The position numbers and the translations under genes were made by a program. The notes beneath the pieces were generated by a model that saw nothing but the letters and a program-made list of their open reading frames with translations, searched no databases and had not been told where the DNA came from. 64,000 nucleotides of DNA from Conexibacter sp. (lineage in GTDB: Bacteria; Actinomycetota; Thermoleophilia; Solirubrobacterales; Solirubrobacteraceae), in the NCBI GenBank assembly GCA_036009645.1, contig DASYLH010000016.1, positions 2,165-66,164 on the forward strand, written 5' to 3'. Position 1 is the stretch's first letter, and each line of letters starts with the position of its first letter. Positions 15,931 through 58,431 of the stretch are shown one piece after another.

Positions 15931-16727
15931 GCGCCGCCGCCCGCCGCCTCGGGTTCGCGCTCGCGGCGGCGGGCCTCGTGGTCGTGGGGTTGGTGGTGGG
16001 GTCACTGCTCGTGCCGGGCAGCGGCTCGTCGGCACCAGCCGGATCCGGCGCGGGTGGCGGCTCCGCGGCGAGCGTTTCCACTCGTGTTCGCGGCGCCGGG
16101 AACGGAGCGGACTCGGACACGGGTGTGCTTCGCATGGGCGTCAGCCTTGTGGCGAACGTGCGCGGAACGCGCCCGTTCGCGGTCTACCGCCGGCTCGGCG
16201 CGACCCGCCCCACGCGCCGGCTCGCCGGCCCTGCCGCGCGCGTCTACCTCGTGCGCGAGCGTCGTCCCGGCGGATGGCTGCGTGTACTGCTGCCGGTGCG
16301 GCCGAACGGTGCGAGCGGCTGGATCCGCGCGCGGCGCGTCGAGCTGCGCACCAATCCGTACCGGATCGATGTGCATCTCCGCGCGCACCGGCTCGTCGTG
16401 CGCCGCGGAGATCGAACAGTGCTGCGGACGCCGATCGGCGTCGGTCGCGCCGCTACCCCGACCCCGCGCGGGATCGCGTACGTGACGCGATTGCTCCGCC
16501 AGCCCGATCCGCACGGCGCGTACGGACCGTGGGCCTTCGGCCTGTCCGTCTACTCGCCGGTGCTGACGTCGTTCGGCGGCGGCCCGGGCGAGGTCGGCAT
16601 CCACGGCACGGACGCGCCTGCCGGGATCGGCCGCGACGTCAGCCACGGTTGCATCCGCCTTCCCAACGCGGCGATCGAGCGGCTCGCGCGCACGCTCCCG
16701 CTGGGCACGCCGGTGCGGATCGCATGA
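15927..16727 (+). CDS. L,D-transpeptidase (YkuD domain)
   Basis: Membrane anchor; VGIHGTD..DVSHGCIRL catalytic His/Cys motif. Confidence 0.9.
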   Translation: MSAAARRLGFALAAAGLVVVGLVVGSLLVPGSGSSAPAGSGAGGGSAASVSTRVRGAGNGADSDTGVLRMGVSLVANVRGTRPFAVYRRLGATRPTRRLAGPAARVYLVRERRPGGWLRVLLPVRPNGASGWIRARRVELRTNPYRIDVHLRAHRLVVRRGDRTVLRTPIGVGRAATPTPRGIAYVTRLLRQPDPHGAYGPWAFGLSVYSPVLTSFGGGPGEVGIHGTDAPAGIGRDVSHGCIRLPNAAIERLARTLPLGTPVRIA

Positions 16728-29214: not shown

Positions 29215-30321
29215 TCAGCTGCCAGCGTGCGGTGGCGTGGCGGGTAGTTGCACCGTGACGCAGAGCCCGCCGGCGGCGCGGGGGGTGAGGGTGAGGGTTC
29301 CGTCGTGTGCTTGGGTGATGCTTTTGACGATTGCCAGGCCGAGGCCGACGCCTGCGTGGTCGGTGCGTATGCGTTTGGAGCCGCGCTGAAACGGCTCGAC
29401 AAGCGTGGAAGCCAACTGTGGGGTGAGCGTCGCGCCGGTGTTCTCGACGGTGAGCACCACACCCTTGGGGTGAACGCTGGTCGTGACCCACACGGTGCCC
29501 TGTTCAGGCAGGTTGTGGACGATCGCGTTGTGCAAGAGGTTCGTTGTCATCTGCAGCAGGAGGGCGGGTGAGCCGATGGTGGGGGTCAGTTCGCCGGAGG
29601 TCTCGATGGTGGCGCCGCGTTCCTCTGCGAGGGGGAGGAGCGTTTCCGTGGCTTCTTCGGCTATGAGTGACAGGTCGGCGTGTTCTCGGACGAAGGACCG
29701 CTGGTCGGCGCGGCTGAGCAGGAGCAACGCTTCGGTGAGGTCGATCGCTCGGGTGTTGACGAAGTGGAGGCGCTCGACAAGTTCGTCGTTGCCGCGGCTT
29801 TGATCGTTGCGGGCCACGTCGAGGAGCGTCTGCGTGATCGCCAGCGGGGTGCGCAGCTCATGGGAGGCATTGGCTGCGAATCGCTGCTGTTCGGCGACGC
29901 GTGCCTCGAGTCGCGCAAGCATGGTGTCGAAGGCGTCGGCGAGCTCGCGGAACTCGTCGTTGCGGCCTTCCAACGCGATCCGGTGGGAGAGCGATCCGGT
30001 CGCGGCGACGCGTGTGGCGTCGGAGATCCGTTCCAAGGGAGCGAGCATCCGTCCGGCCAGAAGCCACCCCCCGACGAGACCGAACACCAGGAGGAAGGCC
30101 AGCACCACGACTGCCGCCGTGCCGAAGACGCCTGGGCCAAAGTTGGTGGGGTTGAAGACGCGCGGGAAGTTGGAGAACCTGGGAACGAGGCTGCTGGCGG
30201 GATAGTCTCGCAAGAGGAACACCCAGACGGCCGCGAGCATCAGGGCGCCAGCGATCATGAGGAAGCCGGCGTAGCTGAGGGTGAGCTTGAGGCGGACGCT
30301 CAAGCCCGGGGCCCTATCCAC
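29215..30321 (-). CDS. vanS: VanS sensor histidine kinase (actinobacterial type)
   Basis: GTG start; LSVRLKLTLSYAGF, HAMP, FAANASHELRTPLAI, NLLHNAIVHN, GVGLGLAI; adjacent to vanR. Confidence 0.9.
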   Translation of the reverse strand: MDRAPGLSVRLKLTLSYAGFLMIAGALMLAAVWVFLLRDYPASSLVPRFSNFPRVFNPTNFGPGVFGTAAVVVLAFLLVFGLVGGWLLAGRMLAPLERISDATRVAATGSLSHRIALEGRNDEFRELADAFDTMLARLEARVAEQQRFAANASHELRTPLAITQTLLDVARNDQSRGNDELVERLHFVNTRAIDLTEALLLLSRADQRSFVREHADLSLIAEEATETLLPLAEERGATIETSGELTPTIGSPALLLQMTTNLLHNAIVHNLPEQGTVWVTTSVHPKGVVLTVENTGATLTPQLASTLVEPFQRGSKRIRTDHAGVGLGLAIVKSITQAHDGTLTLTPRAAGGLCVTVQLPATPPHAGS

Positions 30322-31000
30322 CGTCCCCTCCGGTGCCGGATGCTGTGTCGATGCGGTACCCGGCGCCGGCCACGGTGGCGATGATCCATGGTTCACCGAG
30401 GCGTCTGCGCAGTGCCGAGACGGTGATGCGCACGGCGTTGGTGAACGGGTTTGCGTTCTCGTCCCACGCCCGATTCAGTAACTCTTCGGCGCTGACGACA
30501 CCCCCTTCGGCAGCGACGAGAACTTCGAGCACTGCGAACTGCTTCCGCGTCAGCGCGACGTAGCGGCCGTCGCGGTAGACCTCTCGGCGGAACGGATCCA
30601 GCCGCAGGCCTGCGATCTCTTGCACAGGCGGCCGGTTGTGGGCGCGCCGGCGGTCGAGCGCCCTGAGACGGAGCACCAGCTCCTGGAGTTCGAAGGGCTT
30701 CGTGAGGTAGTCGTCGGCGCCGAGCCCGAACCCGGAGGCCTTGTCGTCGAGCCGGTCGGCGGCGGTCAGCATGAGGATCGGCATGCCGCTGCCGGAGGCG
30801 ACGATGTGTTTGGCGATCTCGTCACCGGAGGGTCCGGGGATGTCTCGGTCGAGGACGGCGATGTCGTAGGCGTTGACGCTCAGCAGCTCCAGAGCGGTGT
30901 CGCCGTCACCGGCGATGTCTGCCGCGATCGCTTCCAGGCGTAGGCCATCGCGGATGGCTTCGGCCATGTAGGGCTCATCCTCGACGATCAAGACGCGCAT
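30314..31000 (-). CDS. vanR: VanR response regulator
   Basis: MRVLIVEDEPYMAEAIRDGLRLEAIAADIAGDG..LDRDIPGPSGDEIA..WDENANPFTNAVRITVSALRRRLG; TAGCAT -10 six nt before ATG suggests a leaderless mRNA. Confidence 0.92.
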   Translation of the reverse strand: MRVLIVEDEPYMAEAIRDGLRLEAIAADIAGDGDTALELLSVNAYDIAVLDRDIPGPSGDEIAKHIVASGSGMPILMLTAADRLDDKASGFGLGADDYLTKPFELQELVLRLRALDRRRAHNRPPVQEIAGLRLDPFRREVYRDGRYVALTRKQFAVLEVLVAAEGGVVSAEELLNRAWDENANPFTNAVRITVSALRRRLGEPWIIATVAGAGYRIDTASGTGGDGG

Positions 31001-31022
31001 GCTCCGATGCTACGAGCTGGCG

Positions 31023-31061
31023 CATATCGTCGGCGTATCGAAAACCACATACGTGCTGGCA
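31023..31061 (+). promoter_or_regulatory. van promoter element (putative VanR box), copy 1
   Basis: CATATCGTCGGCGTATCGAAAACCATACGTGCTGGCAAC; near-identical copy upstream of vanH. Confidence 0.75.
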
Positions 31062-31163
31062 ACGCCACGCTGCCTTGACTGGCGGCGTGACCTGCAGCGA
31101 ACCGGCACGAACGGCACCCCGCCGTACCCGATCGACCATCGTCGTCGGCTTCGCCGGTGCGGC

Positions 31164-32228
31164 ATGAGCAAGACGCCGCAGGCTCGCCGCGGGACCGCAA
31201 CCCTGTACGGCCGTCGCCGTCGCCGCGTGCTGCTCGGCGCGGTACTGGCCCTCGCCCTCGCTGCCACGGCGTTCGCGGCTCCCCACCACCTGCTCAACGG
31301 CGAGGAGCGCAGCTACCTGTCGACGGACGGCTGGCCGCTTCACGGACAAGGGGCGTACGTGCTCGACGACGGCCGGCCGGCGGGGAGCCCGCACCAGCAG
31401 CCGGTCCCGATCGCCAGCGTGGCAAAGGTGATGACCGCGTACATCGTGCTCAAGCACCACCCGCTGCGGGCGGACGACAGCGGCCCGCGATTCGTGGTCG
31501 GTCAGGACGATGTCGTGGACACCGAGGCGAGGCGCCGCGACGGCCAGTCGGTTGTCGATGTCCGCGCCGGCGAGCAGCTCACCGAGCGGGACGCCCTCAT
31601 GGCGATCCTGTTGCCGTCCGCGAACAACGTCGCGGTGCTCGTCGCCCGTCAGGTCTCCGGCAGCATCGCTTCCTTCGTGGCGGAGATGAACGACACGGCG
31701 CGCGCGTTGGGAATGTCCCACACGACCTACACCGATCCAAGCGGATACGACGTCGGCACGGTCTCGACAGCCCTCGATCAGCTCCGTCTGGCGCGGGTGG
31801 TGGCCAACGACGAGACGCTGGCGGCCATGATGGCCACCCGCACCTACTGGCTGCCGGTGGCCGGTGAGGTGACCAACACCAACGCCCTGCTCGGCCATGA
31901 CGGGTTCGTCGGCATGAAGACCGGCTCACACGAGGCGGCCGGCGGCTGCTTGATGTTCCGGGTCGTGTGGCCCACCGAGAGCGGCAGCCGATCCCTGATC
32001 GGCGTGGTGCTCGGGCAGCGAGGAGACAACCTGATCACCGCGGGACTGGGTGCGGCCGAGCAGCTGGTCGACCGCCTGGCGCCGGACGCGGCACCCACTG
32101 GAGCATCCAGCATGCCCGCTGCAGCCGGCCGCCTCAGCGTGGCCCAGCCGGGGCTCGCGACACCACCCGGAACATATCGTCCGCATATCGAAAACCACAT
32201 ACGCGCTGGCAACACCCCGCTCCCTTGA
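31164..32228 (+). CDS. D-alanyl-D-alanine carboxypeptidase (peptidase S11)
   Basis: SxxK (IASVAK), SxN (PSANN), KTG (GMKTG); N-terminal membrane anchor/signal. Confidence 0.88.
   Translation: MSKTPQARRGTATLYGRRRRRVLLGAVLALALAATAFAAPHHLLNGEERSYLSTDGWPLHGQGAYVLDDGRPAGSPHQQPVPIASVAKVMTAYIVLKHHPLRADDSGPRFVVGQDDVVDTEARRRDGQSVVDVRAGEQLTERDALMAILLPSANNVAVLVARQVSGSIASFVAEMNDTARALGMSHTTYTDPSGYDVGTVSTALDQLRLARVVANDETLAAMMATRTYWLPVAGEVTNTNALLGHDGFVGMKTGSHEAAGGCLMFRVVWPTESGSRSLIGVVLGQRGDNLITAGLGAAEQLVDRLAPDAAPTGASSMPAAAGRLSVAQPGLATPPGTYRPHIENHIRAGNTPLP
32173..32213 (+). promoter_or_regulatory. van promoter element (putative VanR box), copy 2
   Basis: CATATCGTCCGCATATCGAAAACCACATACGCGCTGGCAAC, ending ~24 bp upstream of the vanH start. 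Confidence 0.78.
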
Positions 32229-32236
32229 ATGGAGAC

Positions 32237-33262
32237 ATGGTCCGCAGCGAACCAGCACGAACCGCGGGCCGCCGCACCCGATCGCTGGCATCCGTCCCGA
32301 CGATGGGGATCACGATCTATGGGTGCGGACAGGACGAGGCCGCCGTGTTCCGAGAGATGGCGCAAGGCCTTGGCGTCGCGCCGACGATCACCGAGGCAGC
32401 GGTGTCTGAAGGCAACGTCGGACTGGCATTCGGGAACCGATGCATCAGCGTCGGTCACAAGACGCAAGTCACGAATGCCACGCTTCTTGCGCTCAGCGAA
32501 GCCGGCGTGACGTATATCTCCACACGAAGCGTCGGATGCAACCACGTCGACGTGGACTACGCGGAGAGCGTGGGCATCTCCGTAGAGACCGTCGCCTACT
32601 CGCCCGACAGCGTGGCGGACTACACGCTGATGCTGATGCTGATGGCGGTGCGGAATGCCAAATCCGTCATCAGGCGTGCAGACGTTCATGACTACCGATT
32701 GAGCAATGTACGCGGGAAAGAGCTGCGCGACCTGACCGTCGGGGTGATCGGAACGGGACGCATCGGCAGCGCGGTCATGGACCGGCTGCGAGGGTTTGGC
32801 TGCCGAACGCTCGCCTATGACACTCGGCCCAGGACCTCGGCCGACTACGTCACTCTCGGTGCATTGCTCGAGCGGAGCGACATCGTGACGCTCCATGCGC
32901 CACTCACCGCGGATACGCACCATCTCCTCGATCGCCGCCGTATCGAGCGGATGAAGCACAGCGCGGTGATCGTCAACACTGGACGCGGCGCGCTTCTCGA
33001 TACCGAGGCGCTTGTCTCAGCCTTGGAAAGCGGCAGATTGGGCGGCGCGGCGCTGGACGTCCTCGAAGGAGAGGATGGGATCTTCTACGCCGACTGCAGC
33101 GACAAGCCCATCGAAAGCCAACTGCTGCTGCGGTTGCACAAGCTGTCGAACGTGCTGATCAGTCCGCACAGCGCCTACTACACAGACCACGCCCTGATGG
33201 ACACCGTGCAGAACTCCCTTACCAACTGCCTGAAGTTTGCGAGCCGCGATCACCATGAATAA
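32237..33262 (+). CDS. vanH: VanH D-lactate dehydrogenase
   Basis: GGAG RBS; GITIYGCGQDEA, YISTRSVGCNH, YSPDSVADYTLMLMLMAVR, GTGRIG, ISPHSAYYT. Confidence 0.95.
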   Translation: MVRSEPARTAGRRTRSLASVPTMGITIYGCGQDEAAVFREMAQGLGVAPTITEAAVSEGNVGLAFGNRCISVGHKTQVTNATLLALSEAGVTYISTRSVGCNHVDVDYAESVGISVETVAYSPDSVADYTLMLMLMAVRNAKSVIRRADVHDYRLSNVRGKELRDLTVGVIGTGRIGSAVMDRLRGFGCRTLAYDTRPRTSADYVTLGALLERSDIVTLHAPLTADTHHLLDRRRIERMKHSAVIVNTGRGALLDTEALVSALESGRLGGAALDVLEGEDGIFYADCSDKPIESQLLLRLHKLSNVLISPHSAYYTDHALMDTVQNSLTNCLKFASRDHHE

Positions 33263-34295
33263 GTTGAAGGTTGGGATCGTCTTCGGTGGCTGCTCCGAAG
33301 AGCATCCGATCTCCGTCAAGTCGGCGCAAGAGGTCGCAAGACACCTCGATATCGCCAAGTACGAACCGTTCTACGTCGGGATCACGACGAGCGGTGCGTG
33401 GAAGCTTTGTGACGGCCCTGACGCAAATTGGGAAGACGGAAGTTGCCGTCCGGCCGTCCTGTCACCGGACAGAAGCGTCCACGGACTGCTCGTCCTGGAA
33501 GAGGGAAGATACGAGACGATCAGCCTCGACGTAGTGTTGCCCATCCTGCACGGCAAGCTCGGCGAAGACGGCGCGATGCAGGGTTTGTTGGAGCTCTCCG
33601 GCATTCCCTATGCAGGCTGCGACATCCAAAGCTCCGCCCTGTGCATGGACAAGTCCCTGACGTACATGGTCGCCACAGCCGCGGGAATCGCTACGCCGAG
33701 TTTCTGGACCGTCGCGGCGAACGAGAGCATCGATCCCGACCAGCTCACCTATCCCGTCTTCGTGAAGCCGGCCCGCTCGGGGTCGTCCTTCGGCGTCACC
33801 AAGGTTTCCCACAGAGAAGCGCTCCAGAGCGCGGTGCAGACCGCACGGCAATACGACTCGAAGGTCGTGATCGAGGAAGCTGTCACCGGCAGCGAGGTCG
33901 GATGTGCCCTCCTGGGGAACGACCTGGACCTGTCTGCCGGCGAGGTCGATCAGATCGCCTTGTCTGATGGCTTTTTCAGGATCCATCAGGAACGCGAGCC
34001 CGAACAGGGCTCCGACAACGCGACGGTGATCGTCCCCGCGAACATCTCGGCGGACTCACGGTCGCTGGTGCAGGAGACCGCCAAGGCCATCTATCGCGCC
34101 TTGGGATGCAGCGGGCTCTCGCGGGTGGACATGTTCCTCACCGAGGATGGACAGGTCGTGCTCAACGAGGTCAACACGTTGCCCGGGATGACGTCATACA
34201 GCCGCTACCCGAGGATGATGGCCGCGGCAGGACTGCCCTTTGCGGACGTGATCGACCGGATCGTGGCGTTGACGCTGACGGGGACGCGCCGATGA
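33255..34295 (+). CDS. vanA: D-alanine--D-lactate ligase (VanA type)
   Basis: GGCSEEHPISVKSA, KPARSGSSFGV, GFFRIHQE (His typical of D-Ala-D-Lac ligases), NEVNTLPGMTSYSRYPRM. Confidence 0.95.
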   Translation: MNKLKVGIVFGGCSEEHPISVKSAQEVARHLDIAKYEPFYVGITTSGAWKLCDGPDANWEDGSCRPAVLSPDRSVHGLLVLEEGRYETISLDVVLPILHGKLGEDGAMQGLLELSGIPYAGCDIQSSALCMDKSLTYMVATAAGIATPSFWTVAANESIDPDQLTYPVFVKPARSGSSFGVTKVSHREALQSAVQTARQYDSKVVIEEAVTGSEVGCALLGNDLDLSAGEVDQIALSDGFFRIHQEREPEQGSDNATVIVPANISADSRSLVQETAKAIYRALGCSGLSRVDMFLTEDGQVVLNEVNTLPGMTSYSRYPRMMAAAGLPFADVIDRIVALTLTGTRR

Positions 34296-34616
34296 AGGAC
34301 GACTTCGCCTTCGTCGACGAGCGCGTTCCCGGGTCACAGCCGGGGCAGCACCGTCGACCTGACGCTCTATCGATTGGCCACCGGTGAGCTTGCTTCGATG
34401 GGCGGTGATTACGACCTGATGGATCCGATCTCCCACCGTGGGGCGAAGGACATCACGCAGGTCGAAGCGAGAAACCGCGAGGACCTTTGCTCGGTCATGG
34501 AGGCTTGCGGCTTCAGCTCGTACGAGTGCGAGTGGTGGCACTACACGCTGAAGGCCGAGCCCTATCCCGACACCTACTTCGATTTCCCCATCACGCATGC
34601 GCTTCTCGACATCTGA
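34292..34616 (+). pseudogene. vanX: vanX D,D-dipeptidase with ~100-codon internal deletion and frameshift
   Basis: 5' MKDDFAFVDERVPG joins directly, in another frame, to GHSRGSTVDLTL..EWWHYTL..YFDFPI at ~34332. Confidence 0.88.
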
Positions 34617-35949
34617 GCTGACGACCCATCTGGGCGGTGAGCTGGTTGGGCCCGATGTCAGCATCGAAGGGGCGAGCATCGACTCGCGGACGATCCGGCC
34701 GGGGCAGCTCTACGCCCCCATCGTGGCCGAGCGCGACGGCCACGCCTTCATCCCGGCAGCGCTCGAGGCGGGCGCGCCGGCCTACCTGACCGCGCAGGAG
34801 CCGGTGGGCGGGACGGCCATCCGTGTTCGCGACACCGCCGCCGCACTGTTGAACCTCGGGGGATTCGCCCGCAGTCGGGTCGGCGGCGCGATCGGCATCA
34901 CAGGGTCGGTGGGCAAGACCACCACCAAGGACCTCCTGGCCGGCTGTCTGGCGTCGACGTTCCGCACCGCCGCGAGCGAGCGTTCCTTCAACAACGAGCT
35001 GGGCCTCCCTCTGACGCTGCTCAACGCGTCGGACGCTGCGCGGTGGGTGGTCCTCGAGATGGGAGTCCGGCGTGTGGGGGACATCGAGCGGCTGGCCGAG
35101 GTCGCACGTCCCGACGTAGGCATCGTGACCAGCGTCGATATGGCGCACGTGGAGTACCTCGGTGACCTCAACGGCGTGGCCCGCGCCAAAGGGGAGCTCG
35201 TGGCGGCCTTGCCGGCATCGGGTCTCGCGGTGTTGAACTTCGACGACCCCCGGGTCCGAGAGATGGCGTCGCTCAGCGCGTGTCCCGTGCTGGGGTATGC
35301 GGTGGGCGCCGACGCCGAAGTGCGGGCGGACGACGTCACGCTCGACCGGGACCTGCGCGCACGGTTCCGCCTGTCGTCGCCGTGGGGGCAGACCGAGGTC
35401 CGGCTGGCGTTGCACGGCGTGCAGCACGTCGCCAACGCGCTCGCCGCCGCGACGGTCGCGCTGTGGTGTGGGGTCCCCATCGAGACCGTCGCCGCGGCAC
35501 TAACGGTGAGCCAGGGCTCGCCCTGGCGCATGGAGGTTCATCACGTGCCCGGCGGCCCCGTCCTGGTGGTCGACTGTTTCAACGCGATCCCCGCGTCGGC
35601 CGAGGCGGCCGTGCGCTCGCTGGCCGCGTTGCCGGGCAAACGCAAGCTGGCAGTCCTCGGGCTGATGGCCGAGCTGGGGGACCAGAGCGAGTCCGAGCAT
35701 CGCCGGATCGCCCTCGTGGCGGAGGAACTCGGGATCGAGGTGGTGGGATACAAGACCGGGCTCTATGGCAAGGCGCACGTGACGGGCGTCGACGAGGCTG
35801 TCGCCTTGTTGCGCACGATGGGCTCGGGTGACGCAGCGCTTGTCAAGGGCAGCCGCGTGGCGCGACTCGAAGACGTGGTGCACGCCTATGGGAAGGCCGA
35901 GGGCGCGCCGTCGCTCAGCTCCGGCGCCGGGGCGGCGGCGGGTGCGTAA
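34597..35949 (+). CDS. murF: MurF (UDP-MurNAc-tripeptide--dipeptide ligase) within the van operon
   Basis: GITGSVGKTTTKD, SFNNELGLPLTL, VLEMG, LGLMAELG, LVKGSR. Confidence 0.9.
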   Translation: MRFSTSELTTHLGGELVGPDVSIEGASIDSRTIRPGQLYAPIVAERDGHAFIPAALEAGAPAYLTAQEPVGGTAIRVRDTAAALLNLGGFARSRVGGAIGITGSVGKTTTKDLLAGCLASTFRTAASERSFNNELGLPLTLLNASDAARWVVLEMGVRRVGDIERLAEVARPDVGIVTSVDMAHVEYLGDLNGVARAKGELVAALPASGLAVLNFDDPRVREMASLSACPVLGYAVGADAEVRADDVTLDRDLRARFRLSSPWGQTEVRLALHGVQHVANALAAATVALWCGVPIETVAAALTVSQGSPWRMEVHHVPGGPVLVVDCFNAIPASAEAAVRSLAALPGKRKLAVLGLMAELGDQSESEHRRIALVAEELGIEVVGYKTGLYGKAHVTGVDEAVALLRTMGSGDAALVKGSRVARLEDVVHAYGKAEGAPSLSSGAGAAAGA

Positions 35950-38733
35950 CTACGTCAGCTGCGTTGCCCAGAACGCTTCAAACCGTGCGATCCGTCGGAG
36001 CCATATCCGACGGCCAGTCTCGTTTTGCTGCAACGCGAGCGCTGCCTGCAGGAGCGGATGCACCGCCGGGGCGTAGTCATCAGGCGCTCCCTCATACAGG
36101 GATGACCATGCGAATTGGCTGAGGGGCTCGTCGCCCAGCTCGCGAATCCGTGTGAGCAGGTTTTGAACGATGTGCTCGCGCAGCCTGAGGTCCCCGGTCC
36201 GCGCGGCGGTCTCCATCAGCGAGCGCACGGCGCCGTACTGCACCCAGCTGTAGTCGTCTCCGATCGCTTGCAACAGCGCCGCCGTGTTCGCTTCCGTCGG
36301 CCAGGCACCGAGCACATGGACGACGCGCCAGCGAATTGCGCGCGCGGTCGAGTCGGCAGAGGGATGGGCCGCGTAGAGGGCGCGCAGTTGTGCCGCGCGC
36401 TCGGGATCATGCGCGAAGCGGCGCGCAACGCTGGCCATCGTCCAACCGATCAGTGAGTCGCTGCTCGCAATCAGCGCCGCCTCCTGTTCGCTGAGCGGCG
36501 TGGGCGGCATGCGGCAGAAGCACGCGCGCCACTGCTCGAACCACTCGGGGCCGCTGGGGGCAACGCGGACGACGTCGATCAGCGCTGCAAGTGACGGAGC
36601 CGACGTCAACTGCGCCGCCACATCGCCACTGAAGCGTTCGAGATGTTGAATCGTCACCCCGCGCGTGCCGTCGACGCGATCGAAGCGCTTTTCCGCGATG
36701 ACAGCGAGCAACGCCATCCGGAGTGGTGCGCTTGCGGCCGGCGACCCGTCGTGCTCAGCCGCGATCATCGCGGCGATCGTGCCGCCCCAGTTCCAGTCGT
36801 AGACCGCCCGCAGAAATGCGTCGCGCTCGTCCTCGCGCGTGAGCTGCTCAAGCGTCAGCCCGAGCACGTCAAACGACGCGGCATCAAAGGTCATCGCGTC
36901 GAACACCACCGGCGTCCACTGACGCGCACAAGCGGCAAGGTGGCGGGCCGCCAGGTAGTCGTGCTCAAGCTGGTGATGAAACGCCAGATCCTCTTCGCCG
37001 AGTACCACGCCGGCGTCCTGCAACATGGCGAACACGTCGTCTCCAGCGACGTCAGCGATCGCGGTAGCAGGAAAGCTGCGCCGGCGCTGGAGATACACCT
37101 CGAACGCTGCGTGCGCGAGCGCGTCGAGCTGATCGTCGCTGAGGTCAAGCTGCACGGCAAAGAAATCCTGCAGTGCCGCGGCGCGTGAGATGAGTGCAAG
37201 GTTGCCGCCGCGGATTGCGCGGTTGAGGAAGAACGGAATGCGCAGCAGCTCGACCGCGGCACCCAGGTCAGCTGCAGCGTCCTCGCCGAGCTGCTCGGTC
37301 AGGACCCGCTTCACCTCTGCTACCTCGAGCGGCTCCAGGCGCATAGTCGTCCAGCCGCTCTCGTCGTAAAACTCGCCAAGTGACCGGTCGGTCACCAGAG
37401 TGCGCACGTGGGGGCGCGTGCGCATGTACTCATCCAAGAGCGTGAGGATGCGTCGGCCGACGTCTGCAAACGAGACCTCGTTCAAGCCGTCGACGAACAG
37501 CAGCACTGGTCGGCGTACGGCAATCGCATCGAGCAGCTTGACGCCGATGCGTTGCACGGACGCGCGCAGCAGCGCGTCGAGTGATGGCAGCAGCTCCGCT
37601 CCCGAAGGGTCCTCCGCCAGCCGGTTGCTGTAGGCCGGCTTCCACAACTTCAGGTCGATCAAGACCGGGAACGGCTCCAGCGGGCTTGATGAGGCCTTCA
37701 CTGCCTGGTGCAGGATCGAGCTCTTCCCGACGCCCGCGCCGCCTACGAGCACCGCGCCGTGGCGCTGCATGACCATCGCGAGTGCGTCGTTGCGGGTCAG
37801 CTGTCCGGTGCCGGTCCGTACCACGGAGGCATACGCATCGCTCGGCACCGCGTAGGACGTGTCGAGGCGACGACGCAGTTCATCGAGCGACTCGAGTTCC
37901 TCCGCGGTGGCGACATTGCCGACGGACGGTGTCGCGTCGATCAACGCGAGCGTCGCTGCGACTGCTGCATCACACGCGGCAAGCTTCCAGTCGTCACGCG
38001 TTGCCTGGTTGTCCTTGCCGTCCATCCAATCCGAGATCCCGCGCAGCGCGACAAAGCTCAGCGGGAGGCCATCGTCGGCTGCCTCCAACGCGGCGTGGGC
38101 GACCCCGACGGTCTCCATGTCGACGGCCAACGCCTTGTCGTACTCCGTGACGATCCTGGAGACCTCTGACGCGGCGGGATCGGCGAGCAGCTTGTCGCCA
38201 CAGACCAACTCACCCAACTTCAGTTGCGCTGCTCCCGGCCGCTCGACTTGGCAGCGAGCGCGCCAGTTGGGACGCAGCTCATCGAGTTGGCGAGCGGTCG
38301 TGCTCAGCCGTGGTGAGATCGATTGCCAGCGGATGTAGCGCGGTACACGGGTGCCGCCGGCTACGAGCTTCTGCAGCTCGTAGTAGTGCAACAGCTCGCT
38401 GACGACGACGTCGCCGAGTGCAACGTCATCGCGTGGCCGTTTGCCCTCACCCCAGATGCCACCACCGCAGTCAGCCAGCACCAGACAGCGCGGCCGCCAC
38501 ACGTGCAGCATGCGCGTCGCGAACGCCTGTGCGGGCAAGTGGGAGCGCTCCGGTGTTTGTCCCTCCACCACCAGATGCGTCCCGCCATCTGCTGCGGGCA
38601 GCTCGGCGACCGTCCAGTACCAGCCGTCCGCCTCGACCGACTTCGCGTCATCGAGCGCTGAGCAGAACAACTCATGCGCCTCATCGACGACTGTAATCAC
38701 GGCGAACGAACAGTTCCTGGCCATCTGGAGCAC
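35950..38733 (-). CDS. Nucleoside phosphorylase (PNP/MTAN-like) + NACHT/STAND NTPase + helical-repeat protein
   Basis: N-term LGDVVVS..VCGDKLL..VDMETVGV..LRGISD; Walker A GGAGVGKS; Walker B LFVDGLNE; LRIPFFL; FHHQLEHDYLAA; HEAT-like C-terminus. Start may be ATG 38724. Confidence 0.82.
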   Translation of the reverse strand: MLQMARNCSFAVITVVDEAHELFCSALDDAKSVEADGWYWTVAELPAADGGTHLVVEGQTPERSHLPAQAFATRMLHVWRPRCLVLADCGGGIWGEGKRPRDDVALGDVVVSELLHYYELQKLVAGGTRVPRYIRWQSISPRLSTTARQLDELRPNWRARCQVERPGAAQLKLGELVCGDKLLADPAASEVSRIVTEYDKALAVDMETVGVAHAALEAADDGLPLSFVALRGISDWMDGKDNQATRDDWKLAACDAAVAATLALIDATPSVGNVATAEELESLDELRRRLDTSYAVPSDAYASVVRTGTGQLTRNDALAMVMQRHGAVLVGGAGVGKSSILHQAVKASSSPLEPFPVLIDLKLWKPAYSNRLAEDPSGAELLPSLDALLRASVQRIGVKLLDAIAVRRPVLLFVDGLNEVSFADVGRRILTLLDEYMRTRPHVRTLVTDRSLGEFYDESGWTTMRLEPLEVAEVKRVLTEQLGEDAAADLGAAVELLRIPFFLNRAIRGGNLALISRAAALQDFFAVQLDLSDDQLDALAHAAFEVYLQRRRSFPATAIADVAGDDVFAMLQDAGVVLGEEDLAFHHQLEHDYLAARHLAACARQWTPVVFDAMTFDAASFDVLGLTLEQLTREDERDAFLRAVYDWNWGGTIAAMIAAEHDGSPAASAPLRMALLAVIAEKRFDRVDGTRGVTIQHLERFSGDVAAQLTSAPSLAALIDVVRVAPSGPEWFEQWRACFCRMPPTPLSEQEAALIASSDSLIGWTMASVARRFAHDPERAAQLRALYAAHPSADSTARAIRWRVVHVLGAWPTEANTAALLQAIGDDYSWVQYGAVRSLMETAARTGDLRLREHIVQNLLTRIRELGDEPLSQFAWSSLYEGAPDDYAPAVHPLLQAALALQQNETGRRIWLRRIARFEAFWATQLT

Positions 38734-57655: not shown

Positions 57656-58431
57656 CAGCGCACCGTCACCGGCGTGCCGACCGTCATCAGCCGACCCAGA
57701 CGCACGACGTCGGCGTTGCGCAGGCGGATGCAGCCGTGCGAGACGCGGCCCGGAATGAGCTCGGGGCGATCCGTCCCATGCACGCCGACGAACCCGCCCG
57801 CCGGCCAGTCGGTCACTCCGGGCGCGCGAGCGCTGGTCCCGAACGCGAGCGGCCCGTACATCGGGCTGCGGTAGTGCCGCAACGCGACGCGGACGTAGAA
57901 GCGGCCCGCTGGCGTCGGCGAGCCCGGTCGCCCGACGGCGACCGGCGCACGGAAGACGCGGCGCCCGCGGCGCAGCAGCGTCGCCGTGAGTCGCCGACGA
58001 TCGACGACGAGCCGCGTCGTCACGACCGTGTAGCCGCCGAGGGTACGGCGCGGCAGCCAGCCCACGCGGCCGCCCGGCAGCCGTGCGCGCAGCCACACGC
58101 CCGCGGGCGTCACGTGCGAGTGGCCGAGCACCAGCACGACGTCGACGGTGCCCTCGGGCGTGCGACGAGCGACCTTCGCGACCGCCGGGGCTCCCGCGCG
58201 CGGCGCGCTCCGGGCAACCGTTGCGACGTTGACCGGCGCCCAGCGCACGAGGTGCGGATCGGTCCGCAGCGGTCGCGGCGGCGGGATCGCGATCGTTTGT
58301 GTCTCCGCGAACGGCCCGGCAGGTGCGCCGGGCGCGGCGTGCGAGCCGGCGAGCGAGCCCGCGACCACCGCGACGCTTACGAGCGCTCCGGCGACGAGCG
58401 CGAGCAGTCGGGTGAGGCGTCCGGGAGGCAC
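57655..58431 (-). CDS. L,D-transpeptidase (YkuD domain)
   Basis: TPAGRFYV..VGVHGTD..VSHGCIRL. Confidence 0.9.
   Translation of the reverse strand: MPPGRLTRLLALVAGALVSVAVVAGSLAGSHAAPGAPAGPFAETQTIAIPPPRPLRTDPHLVRWAPVNVATVARSAPRAGAPAVAKVARRTPEGTVDVVLVLGHSHVTPAGVWLRARLPGGRVGWLPRRTLGGYTVVTTRLVVDRRRLTATLLRRGRRVFRAPVAVGRPGSPTPAGRFYVRVALRHYRSPMYGPLAFGTSARAPGVTDWPAGGFVGVHGTDRPELIPGRVSHGCIRLRNADVVRLGRLMTVGTPVTVR

Follow-up and report, generated by a model that had tools for sequence, protein, structure and literature searches.

The glycopeptide-resistance (van) operon carried by a 64,000-nucleotide (nt) stretch of a Conexibacter sp. genome (GenBank assembly GCA_036009645.1, contig DASYLH010000016.1, positions 2,165 to 66,164; hereafter the window, whose own coordinates are used throughout) has a broken vanX, the gene for the D-Ala-D-Ala dipeptidase, while vanH, vanA and the regulatory pair vanR and vanS are intact. 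The break in vanX is confirmed here, and the deletion that produced it is very probably real. We favor, with fair rather than high confidence, its interpretation as a young, strain-specific, loss-of-function deletion, after which the operon is attenuated or silent, as it is in the vanX-deleted vancomycin-variable enterococci.

The vanX start codon (ATG 34292) overlaps the vanA stop (ATGA, vanA stop at 34293-34295) as it does in the vanX of relatives, and the frame that it opens reads MKDDFAFVDERVPG, followed by the unrelated residues SQPGQHRRPDALSIGHR and a TGA ending at 34387 (Table 1). The rest of the gene lies in the +1 frame, which from 34332 reads GHSRGSTVDLTLYRL...ECEWWHYTL...FDFPI up to a stop at 34614-34616, and in which the earliest start codon is TTG 34374, past the first zinc motif, with none usable before it. 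Profile matches are likewise confined to this second part: Pfam PF01427 covers profile positions 112-197 of 199 only, the NCBIfam VanX model NF033115 covers positions 113-199 of 199 (160 bits vs. a cut-off of 320), and the solved VanX structure (PDB 1R44, 202 residues) aligns to the remnant at residues 116-201, such that the remnant gives no full-length match above the curated cut-off to the VanX dipeptidase family (PF01427, NF033115, MEROPS M15D). Residues ~15-114, which make up the N-terminal half of the fold and presumably include substrate-binding residues, are absent from the remnant, in which 302 nt are missing relative to relatives. The zinc and catalytic motifs, defined as SxHxxGxAxD and ExxH (PMC4790382), are kept as GHSRGSTVD and ECEWWH, but shifted into the +1 frame with respect to ATG 34292 and thus not in a single open frame with it. 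Judged from its sequence, the locus would not encode the functional VanX dipeptidase of a vanHAX-type operon.

To size the loss, the vanA-to-murF stretch of the window was compared (blastn) with six same-genus loci, each of which gave two collinear high-scoring segment pairs (HSPs). The gap calculated from HSP end coordinates was exactly 302 nt (100 codons plus two nucleotides) in five of the six (L004, L005, L006, L007 and L008), and 306 by the same arithmetic in L003, whose HSP is itself gapped; the 325-nt remnant plus 302 nt amounts to 627 nt, or 208 codons and a stop. For the position of the junction, we used these HSP ends together with the overhanging contig ends of metagenome runs. The intact strains nearest to the window, from soil runs X3 and X4, read ...GTTCCCGGG, then ATGCGGTGGGAC on the left flank and ...GCCGCCAAGT, then CGGGTCACAGC on the right, hence a CGGG common to both breakpoints, which is to all appearances the signature of slippage or microhomology deletion. 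One 302-nt deletion between two CGGG tetranucleotides, apparently by replication slippage or microhomology-mediated end joining, would have taken out codons 15 to ~114 and shifted the frame, so that any product would lack the N-terminal half of VanX. An earlier, sequence-only reading of the window had called a deletion of about 100 codons, a 5' frame ending at 34387, and 14 N-terminal codons joined out of frame to the GHSRG..EWWH half at a GG microhomology, all of which agrees with the present data except the microhomology, which is the longer CGGG. The same reading had described vanH, vanA and vanRS as intact, and indeed all four have open frames that match their family profiles from one end to the other.

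Whether the junction arose as an artefact of assembly or sequencing, or is a minority variant picked by the assembler while most cells keep an intact vanX, was considered by comparing the window with contigs (not raw reads) of four metagenome runs, X1 to X4. Run X1 contains 0.96 of the sampled words (vs. 0.20-0.25 for X5 to X24, the last 20 of 24 runs) and probably gave rise to the assembly. One of its separately assembled contigs (601 nt, depth 9.73) spans 34157-34757 with 0 mismatches and 0 gaps, so placed that 173 nt lie left of the junction and 427 nt right of it. Contigs from X3 (19 differences in 569 nt) and X4 (8 in 419 nt) instead continue into intact vanX on the two sides of the junction, and correspond to strains from other soils that are ~97-98% identical to the window. 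An artefact would fit with the junction being seen in X1 alone, on a contig shallower than its neighbors (9.73 vs. 13-14.7 for the flanking contigs), with the intact-type sequence left of 34330 on two X1 contigs, and with the 4.18% contamination of the assembly and a duplicated D-Ala-D-Ala ligase gene (ddl) fragment at one contig edge. No second copy of the junction was found in JGI (Joint Genome Institute) metagenome contigs by either of two pattern scans (exact 28-mer; degenerate gapped pattern), a result that could be set on the same side and is uninformative either way. However, two assemblies of the data are identical over 601 nt, the junction repeat of 4 nt is far shorter than any k-mer and cannot cause a k-mer mis-join, a depth near 10 rules out a single chimeric read, and the two intact-type X1 contigs, which agree with each other at only 0.88, look like the diverged X3 and X4 relatives and need not come from the same strain. 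We thus regard an artefact (one of the alternatives raised by the sequence-only reading) or a minority variant as very unlikely.

Comparison across genomes places the break against a background of conserved vanX. The ligase is present in six of 24 same-genus genomes, the same six have a full-length VanX, and the window genome (G000) is the only one of these seven with a broken vanX in a cluster that is patchy within the genus. In a wider set of 80 loci with the ligase (from Solirubrobacterales, many Actinomycetes, Acidimicrobiia, Chloroflexia metagenome-assembled genomes (MAGs), and a few Firmicutes), a full-length vanX follows vanA in 78, including L027 and L033, which share the S11-vanH-vanA-vanX-murF2 layout of the window (S11 being a D-Ala-D-Ala carboxypeptidase gene, see below). 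The VanX of another of these loci, L032 (Conexibacter stalactiti), is identical to that of same-genus genome G002, which would put the window organism close to Conexibacter. Two loci depart from this pattern. L055 (uncultured Actinomycetota, genome G041) retains five vanX codons (MKADF, at L055:7050-7110) with a GNAT-like gene next, keeps vanS, vanR, vanY, murF, vanH and vanA, and has no PF01427 match in its whole 9.3-Mb genome. L079 (Kribbella rubisoli) has no vanX remnant after vanH-vanA, and a weak VanX-like gene (62 bits) elsewhere in its genome. Both have full-length vanH and vanA, and both carry a VanY gene beside vanR, a place equivalent to that of S11 in the window. As for vanH, 77 of the 80 loci have it at full length, L070 and L083 have it broken over two frames, and none was detected in L072; single-gene lesions are therefore similarly rare for vanH and vanX. 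The split vanH of two Acidimicrobiaceae MAGs (L070:5050-5995 and L083:5057-6008) could be real frameshifts or assembly indel errors.

A domain-only search detected VanY in 29 of the 80 loci. When both enzyme types are counted, a carboxypeptidase is found in the locus of all three vanX-less clusters (the window, L055 and L079) vs. 31 of 78 with vanX (27 VanY and four S11), a difference with a hand-computed one-sided Fisher p of ~0.07, in which the counts are lower bounds given that 19 of the 80 loci span less than 12.9 kb. We consider this association between carboxypeptidase and vanX loss a hint, as it comes from three cases and kin that are not independent.

The ratio of non-synonymous to synonymous changes (dN/dS) on the terminal branch of the window, from an approximate least-squares fit on a neighbor-joining tree, is 0.18 for the vanX remnant (relatives 0.03-0.70), 0.28 for vanA (0.13-0.36) and 0.32 for murF2 (0.16-0.41). 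The remnant is thus without excess amino-acid change, within the range of intact relatives. For vanH, the ratio is the highest of nine taxa (0.54, bootstrap interval 0.29-1.14, relatives 0.13-0.37), a weak and unconfirmed hint of relaxed constraint. The nearest relatives differ from gene to gene, which suggests recombination. Because the remnant has not measurably drifted and vanX is intact in the ~97-98% identical strains of X3 and X4, the deletion is, on this comparison, recent.

We next asked what the rest of the genome (3.69 Mb, 98.3% complete, 4.18% contamination) could offer in place of VanX. A search for another vanX or ddpX, which the sequence-only reading had proposed as a check, returned no other VanX-family gene, PF01427 matching the remnant alone in this 98.3%-complete genome. 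A VanY-domain match on contig C27 was rejected as a substitute, as it lies far from the cluster and has no family matches other than sub-threshold ones to lytic transglycosylases. Two further Ddl genes, on contigs C8 and C51, are open and above D-Ala-D-Ala ligase cut-offs (392 and 333 bits). Contig C53 carries, at one edge, a Ddl fragment that was rejected as a second van ligase because the flank of the C51 ddl is repeated beside it and no VanX lies there. This C-terminal fragment (G000:C53:9-233, L015) is followed by the same neighboring gene as the C51 ddl (G000:C51:141461-142078, L014), and the duplication probably reflects strain heterogeneity or assembly contamination. A second MurF-like match, on contig C12, is 38% identical to murF2 and is taken to be the housekeeping copy. 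With two further open Ddl genes and PF01427 present only as the remnant, D-Ala-D-Ala would therefore still be made, with no known dipeptidase to remove it. The genome also encodes five YkuD L,D-transpeptidase domains, two of which are on the van-cluster contig, at 16356-16721 (+) and 57661-58017 (-).

Taken as loss of function, these observations would have the following meaning. The vanX gene would be a true pseudogene, from a loss event that is young and specific to the strain or population, and the remainder of the inducible operon would be intact because too little time has passed for further decay. Upon induction, by analogy with Tn1546, the cell would make mixed D-Ala-D-Ala and D-Ala-D-Lac precursors, since two intact D-Ala-D-Ala ligases and no dipeptidase are left, and any glycopeptide resistance from the operon would then be low-level at most, or silent. 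Lying 210 nt before murF2, the premature stop would probably weaken translational coupling into that gene as well. Of the decay of the cluster and the dispensability of VanX, both proposed by the sequence-only reading, decay is favored by the full-length vanX in six of six same-genus and 78 of 80 wider loci and by the two intact Ddl genes. Several points weigh against this loss-of-function interpretation: (i) the organism is uncultured and known from a metagenome-type assembly alone; (ii) the junction is supported only by X1, which as the probable assembly source is not an independent sample, and by a contig shallower than its flanks; (iii) the dN/dS of vanA and murF2, which gives no sign of relaxed constraint, is also consistent with continued use; (iv) two accessory functions, namely the S11 carboxypeptidase behind its own repeat copy and the dedicated MurF, might ease the need for VanX; and (v) L055 and L079 both have VanY by vanR, which yields the three-of-three count above.

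The S11 gene, the first after the repeat copy proximal to vanR, encodes a penicillin-binding protein (PBP)-type enzyme. Its start is most plausibly ATG 31164, to judge from the arginine-rich, hydrophobic and signal-like N-terminus that follows. SVAK, SAN and KTG are visible in its translation, and we take these to be the PBP motifs of the family; the match to the PBP-like VanY-D model is weak (32 bits vs. a cut-off of 625). A direct-repeat search revealed that two 123-nt copies bracket this gene (Table 1). The copy-1 stretch, which corresponds to residues 9-45 of the over-long S11 open reading frame (ORF), is found again immediately before vanH in many relatives without S11, and the repeat sequence is also present beside vanR in many relatives. 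From this we infer that the repeat is a VanR-dependent promoter region, duplicated so that S11 and vanH each own one, in which case S11 would belong to the van regulon.

It is tempting to ask whether VanX is instead dispensable in this type of cluster, so that the cell tolerates the deletion and is still protected by the operon. A van-regulated secreted S11 would then trim D-Ala-ending pentapeptide stems to tetrapeptides not bound by glycopeptides, L,D-transpeptidases would cross-link these tetrapeptides, and the dedicated MurF2 would favor the loading of D-Ala-D-Lac. The parts are at hand: the S11 product combines a signal-like N-terminus with SxxK, SxN and KTG motifs in its translation and its gene sits behind repeat copy 1, copy 2 preceding vanH; five YkuD domains are encoded in the genome; murF2 is full length and conserved; and vanX loss is recurrent, as seen in L055 and L079, with a carboxypeptidase in each vanX-less cluster. 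In Nonomuraea, a carboxypeptidase alone with L,D-transpeptidation suffices for resistance (PMC4790382). Against this stand the intact vanX of L027 and L033, which have the same layout, and of the X3 and X4 strains, which argues that vanX is normally retained by selection in this architecture. In addition, the three-case association may include related or incomplete loci, cytoplasmic D-Ala-D-Ala is not removed by a secreted carboxypeptidase, the preference of MurF2 for D-Ala-D-Lac is putative, and the VanY of A. balhimycina is reported to be accessory and to need a functional VanHAX (PMC4790382). Overall, we judge dispensability here rather unlikely, though it is the main rival of the loss-of-function interpretation. 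A broader version would be that, in some actinobacterial van clusters, a van-regulated carboxypeptidase (serine S11 in the window, M15B VanY in L055 and L079), a cluster MurF and L,D-transpeptidases together make VanX redundant. This appears improbable on present evidence; if true, vanX would be repeatedly lost while vanH and vanA stay selected, in a VanX-independent route to D-Ala-D-Lac-based glycopeptide resistance.

The loss-of-function interpretation has close precedents. In published accounts, VanH, VanA and VanX count as the essential enzymes, with VanY in an accessory role (PMC4790382). A 252-bp vanX deletion in Tn1546 accounts for the vancomycin susceptibility of E. faecium ST1421-CT1134 (PMC6712932), and susceptibility is likewise reported for a vanA isolate whose vanX is truncated at its 5' end (PMC8388697). 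Vancomycin-variable E. faecium can regain resistance by mutations in ddl, a raised copy number or a second plasmid (PMC6712932, PMC9978586). As in the window, only vanX is deleted in these enterococcal cases (internally or terminally), with vanH, vanA and vanRS kept (PMC6712932, PMC9978586, PMC8388697). The phenotype there is susceptible or silent, and the likeness to the window is at the genotype level only. The window host is also a soil Solirubrobacterales rather than a clinical Firmicute, its locus appears chromosomal, its deletion is 302 nt long, frame-shifting and in the 5' and middle part of the gene, and its cluster adds an S11 carboxypeptidase and a MurF.

Clusters of the vanRSHAX(Y) type, sometimes with murF, are reported in Solirubrobacterales and other non-producing Actinobacteria, and environmental van pseudogenes include vanAX in Paenibacillus yonginensis and a degraded vanHA in P. 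larvae (Andreo-Vidal et al., 2021, PMC8698665). The window resembles the clusters described there in gene set, gene order, divergent vanRS and co-located murF, and differs from them in its serine S11 carboxypeptidase, in place of an M15B VanY, and in its broken vanX. A second MurF is also known from the murF2-vanHAX of the teicoplanin cluster (Actinoplanes teichomyceticus) and from the vanI cluster of Desulfitobacterium (PMC4790382, PMC4229326). Unlike the window, these have another gene order and an intact vanX, and no biosynthetic cluster is seen beside the window operon. VanD-type enterococcal operons are alike in combining a D-Ala-D-Lac operon with a PBP-type DD-carboxypeptidase (VanY-D). 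The VanD-type system relies little on VanX, and VanD strains have an inactivated host ddl. In contrast, both Ddl genes are open in the window genome, and S11 barely registers on the VanY-D model, at the 32 bits given above.

Both the type of lesion and the type of cluster in the window are thus already known, and the window adds a new instance. It represents a clean natural case of a van operon starting to break in the environmental reservoir, through one microhomology deletion with the rest still readable. Resistome surveys based on gene presence would score the locus positive for vanA, vanH, vanR and vanS though it probably gives no working high-level resistance, the same scoring problem that vancomycin-variable enterococci pose in diagnostics. 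The carboxypeptidase that all three vanX-less clusters carry behind a putative van promoter may matter more, as it would, if upheld phylogenetically, bear on which van genes are essential in Actinobacteria.

Table 1. Features of the van cluster in the window (ORF, open reading frame).
Feature	Position	Strand	Remarks
vanS-type sensor histidine kinase	29215..30396	-	ORF coordinates; Pfam HAMP, HisKA, HATPase_c
vanR-type response regulator	30314..31000	-	Pfam Response_reg and Trans_reg_C
123-nt direct repeat, copy 1	31012..31134		upstream of S11 gene; 80% identical to copy 2
S11 (PBP-type) D-Ala-D-Ala carboxypeptidase, predicted secreted	31164..32228	+	Pfam Peptidase_S11, 7.6e-29; ORF open from 30999
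123-nt direct repeat, copy 2	32162..32284		just upstream of vanH start, overlapping it
vanH D-lactate dehydrogenase	32237..33262	+	alternative start ATG 32303
vanA-type D-alanine--(R)-lactate ligase	33237..34295	+	Pfam Dala_Dala_lig_N and Dala_Dala_lig_C
vanX 5' remnant	34292..34387	+	14 native codons (34292-34333), then out-of-frame tail, TGA 34385-34387; aligned to relatives' vanX starts
Deletion junction	34330..34333	+	within CGGG microhomology (4 nt); 302 nt missing vs. intact relatives
vanX 3' remnant	34332..34616	+	+1 frame; VanX residues 115/116-202
murF2, operon-encoded MurF paralogue	34597..35949	+	start overlaps old vanX stop by 20 nt

The other genes of the cluster match their families over nearly the whole profile. 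The ligase passes the D-Ala-D-Lac equivalog NF000206 (611.1 bits vs. a cut-off of 550, profile positions 1-341 of 342). VanH reaches 539.5 bits on vanH_gen (cut-off 540, positions 1-311 of 312) and 555.7 on VanH-AOV, and is 66-77% identical to the VanH of other loci. Next to the operon lies a VanR/VanS pair with complete domain sets, nearest to VanO-type models and below their allele-specific cut-offs: VanR, 88-95% identical to that of relatives, scores 454.7 bits on VanR-O (positions 4-233 of 233, cut-off 505), and the best NCBIfam match of VanS is VanS-O (544 bits, positions 1-341 of 345, cut-off 720). Since the VanS family match begins only at residue 47 of the ORF, the true start probably lies further in. 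Downstream, murF2 passes TIGR01143 (333.7 bits vs. a cut-off of 288.6, positions 1-418 of 418) and has orthologues (78-92% identity) 3' of vanX in L026, L027, L032, L033, L068, L069 and L074. In a close relative, at L031:7712-7846, only the first 44 murF2 residues are matched 3' of an intact vanX, and murF2 may be truncated there.

A sigma-70 promoter and terminator scan of 30900-36200 returned no promoter-like site and one terminator-like site (minus strand), with no excess over shuffles. The G+C content is 0.61-0.69 over ~29-39 kb, i.e., the van cluster and the next gene, vs. 0.71-0.74 in the flanks; because of this low G+C and the patchy presence of the cluster (six of 24 same-genus genomes), the data suggest a horizontally acquired island. 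Directly after murF2, at 35950-38733 on the minus strand, lies the gene for a 927-residue protein with an N-terminal PNP_UDP_1 (nucleoside-phosphorylase superfamily) domain and a weak HEAT-repeat match.

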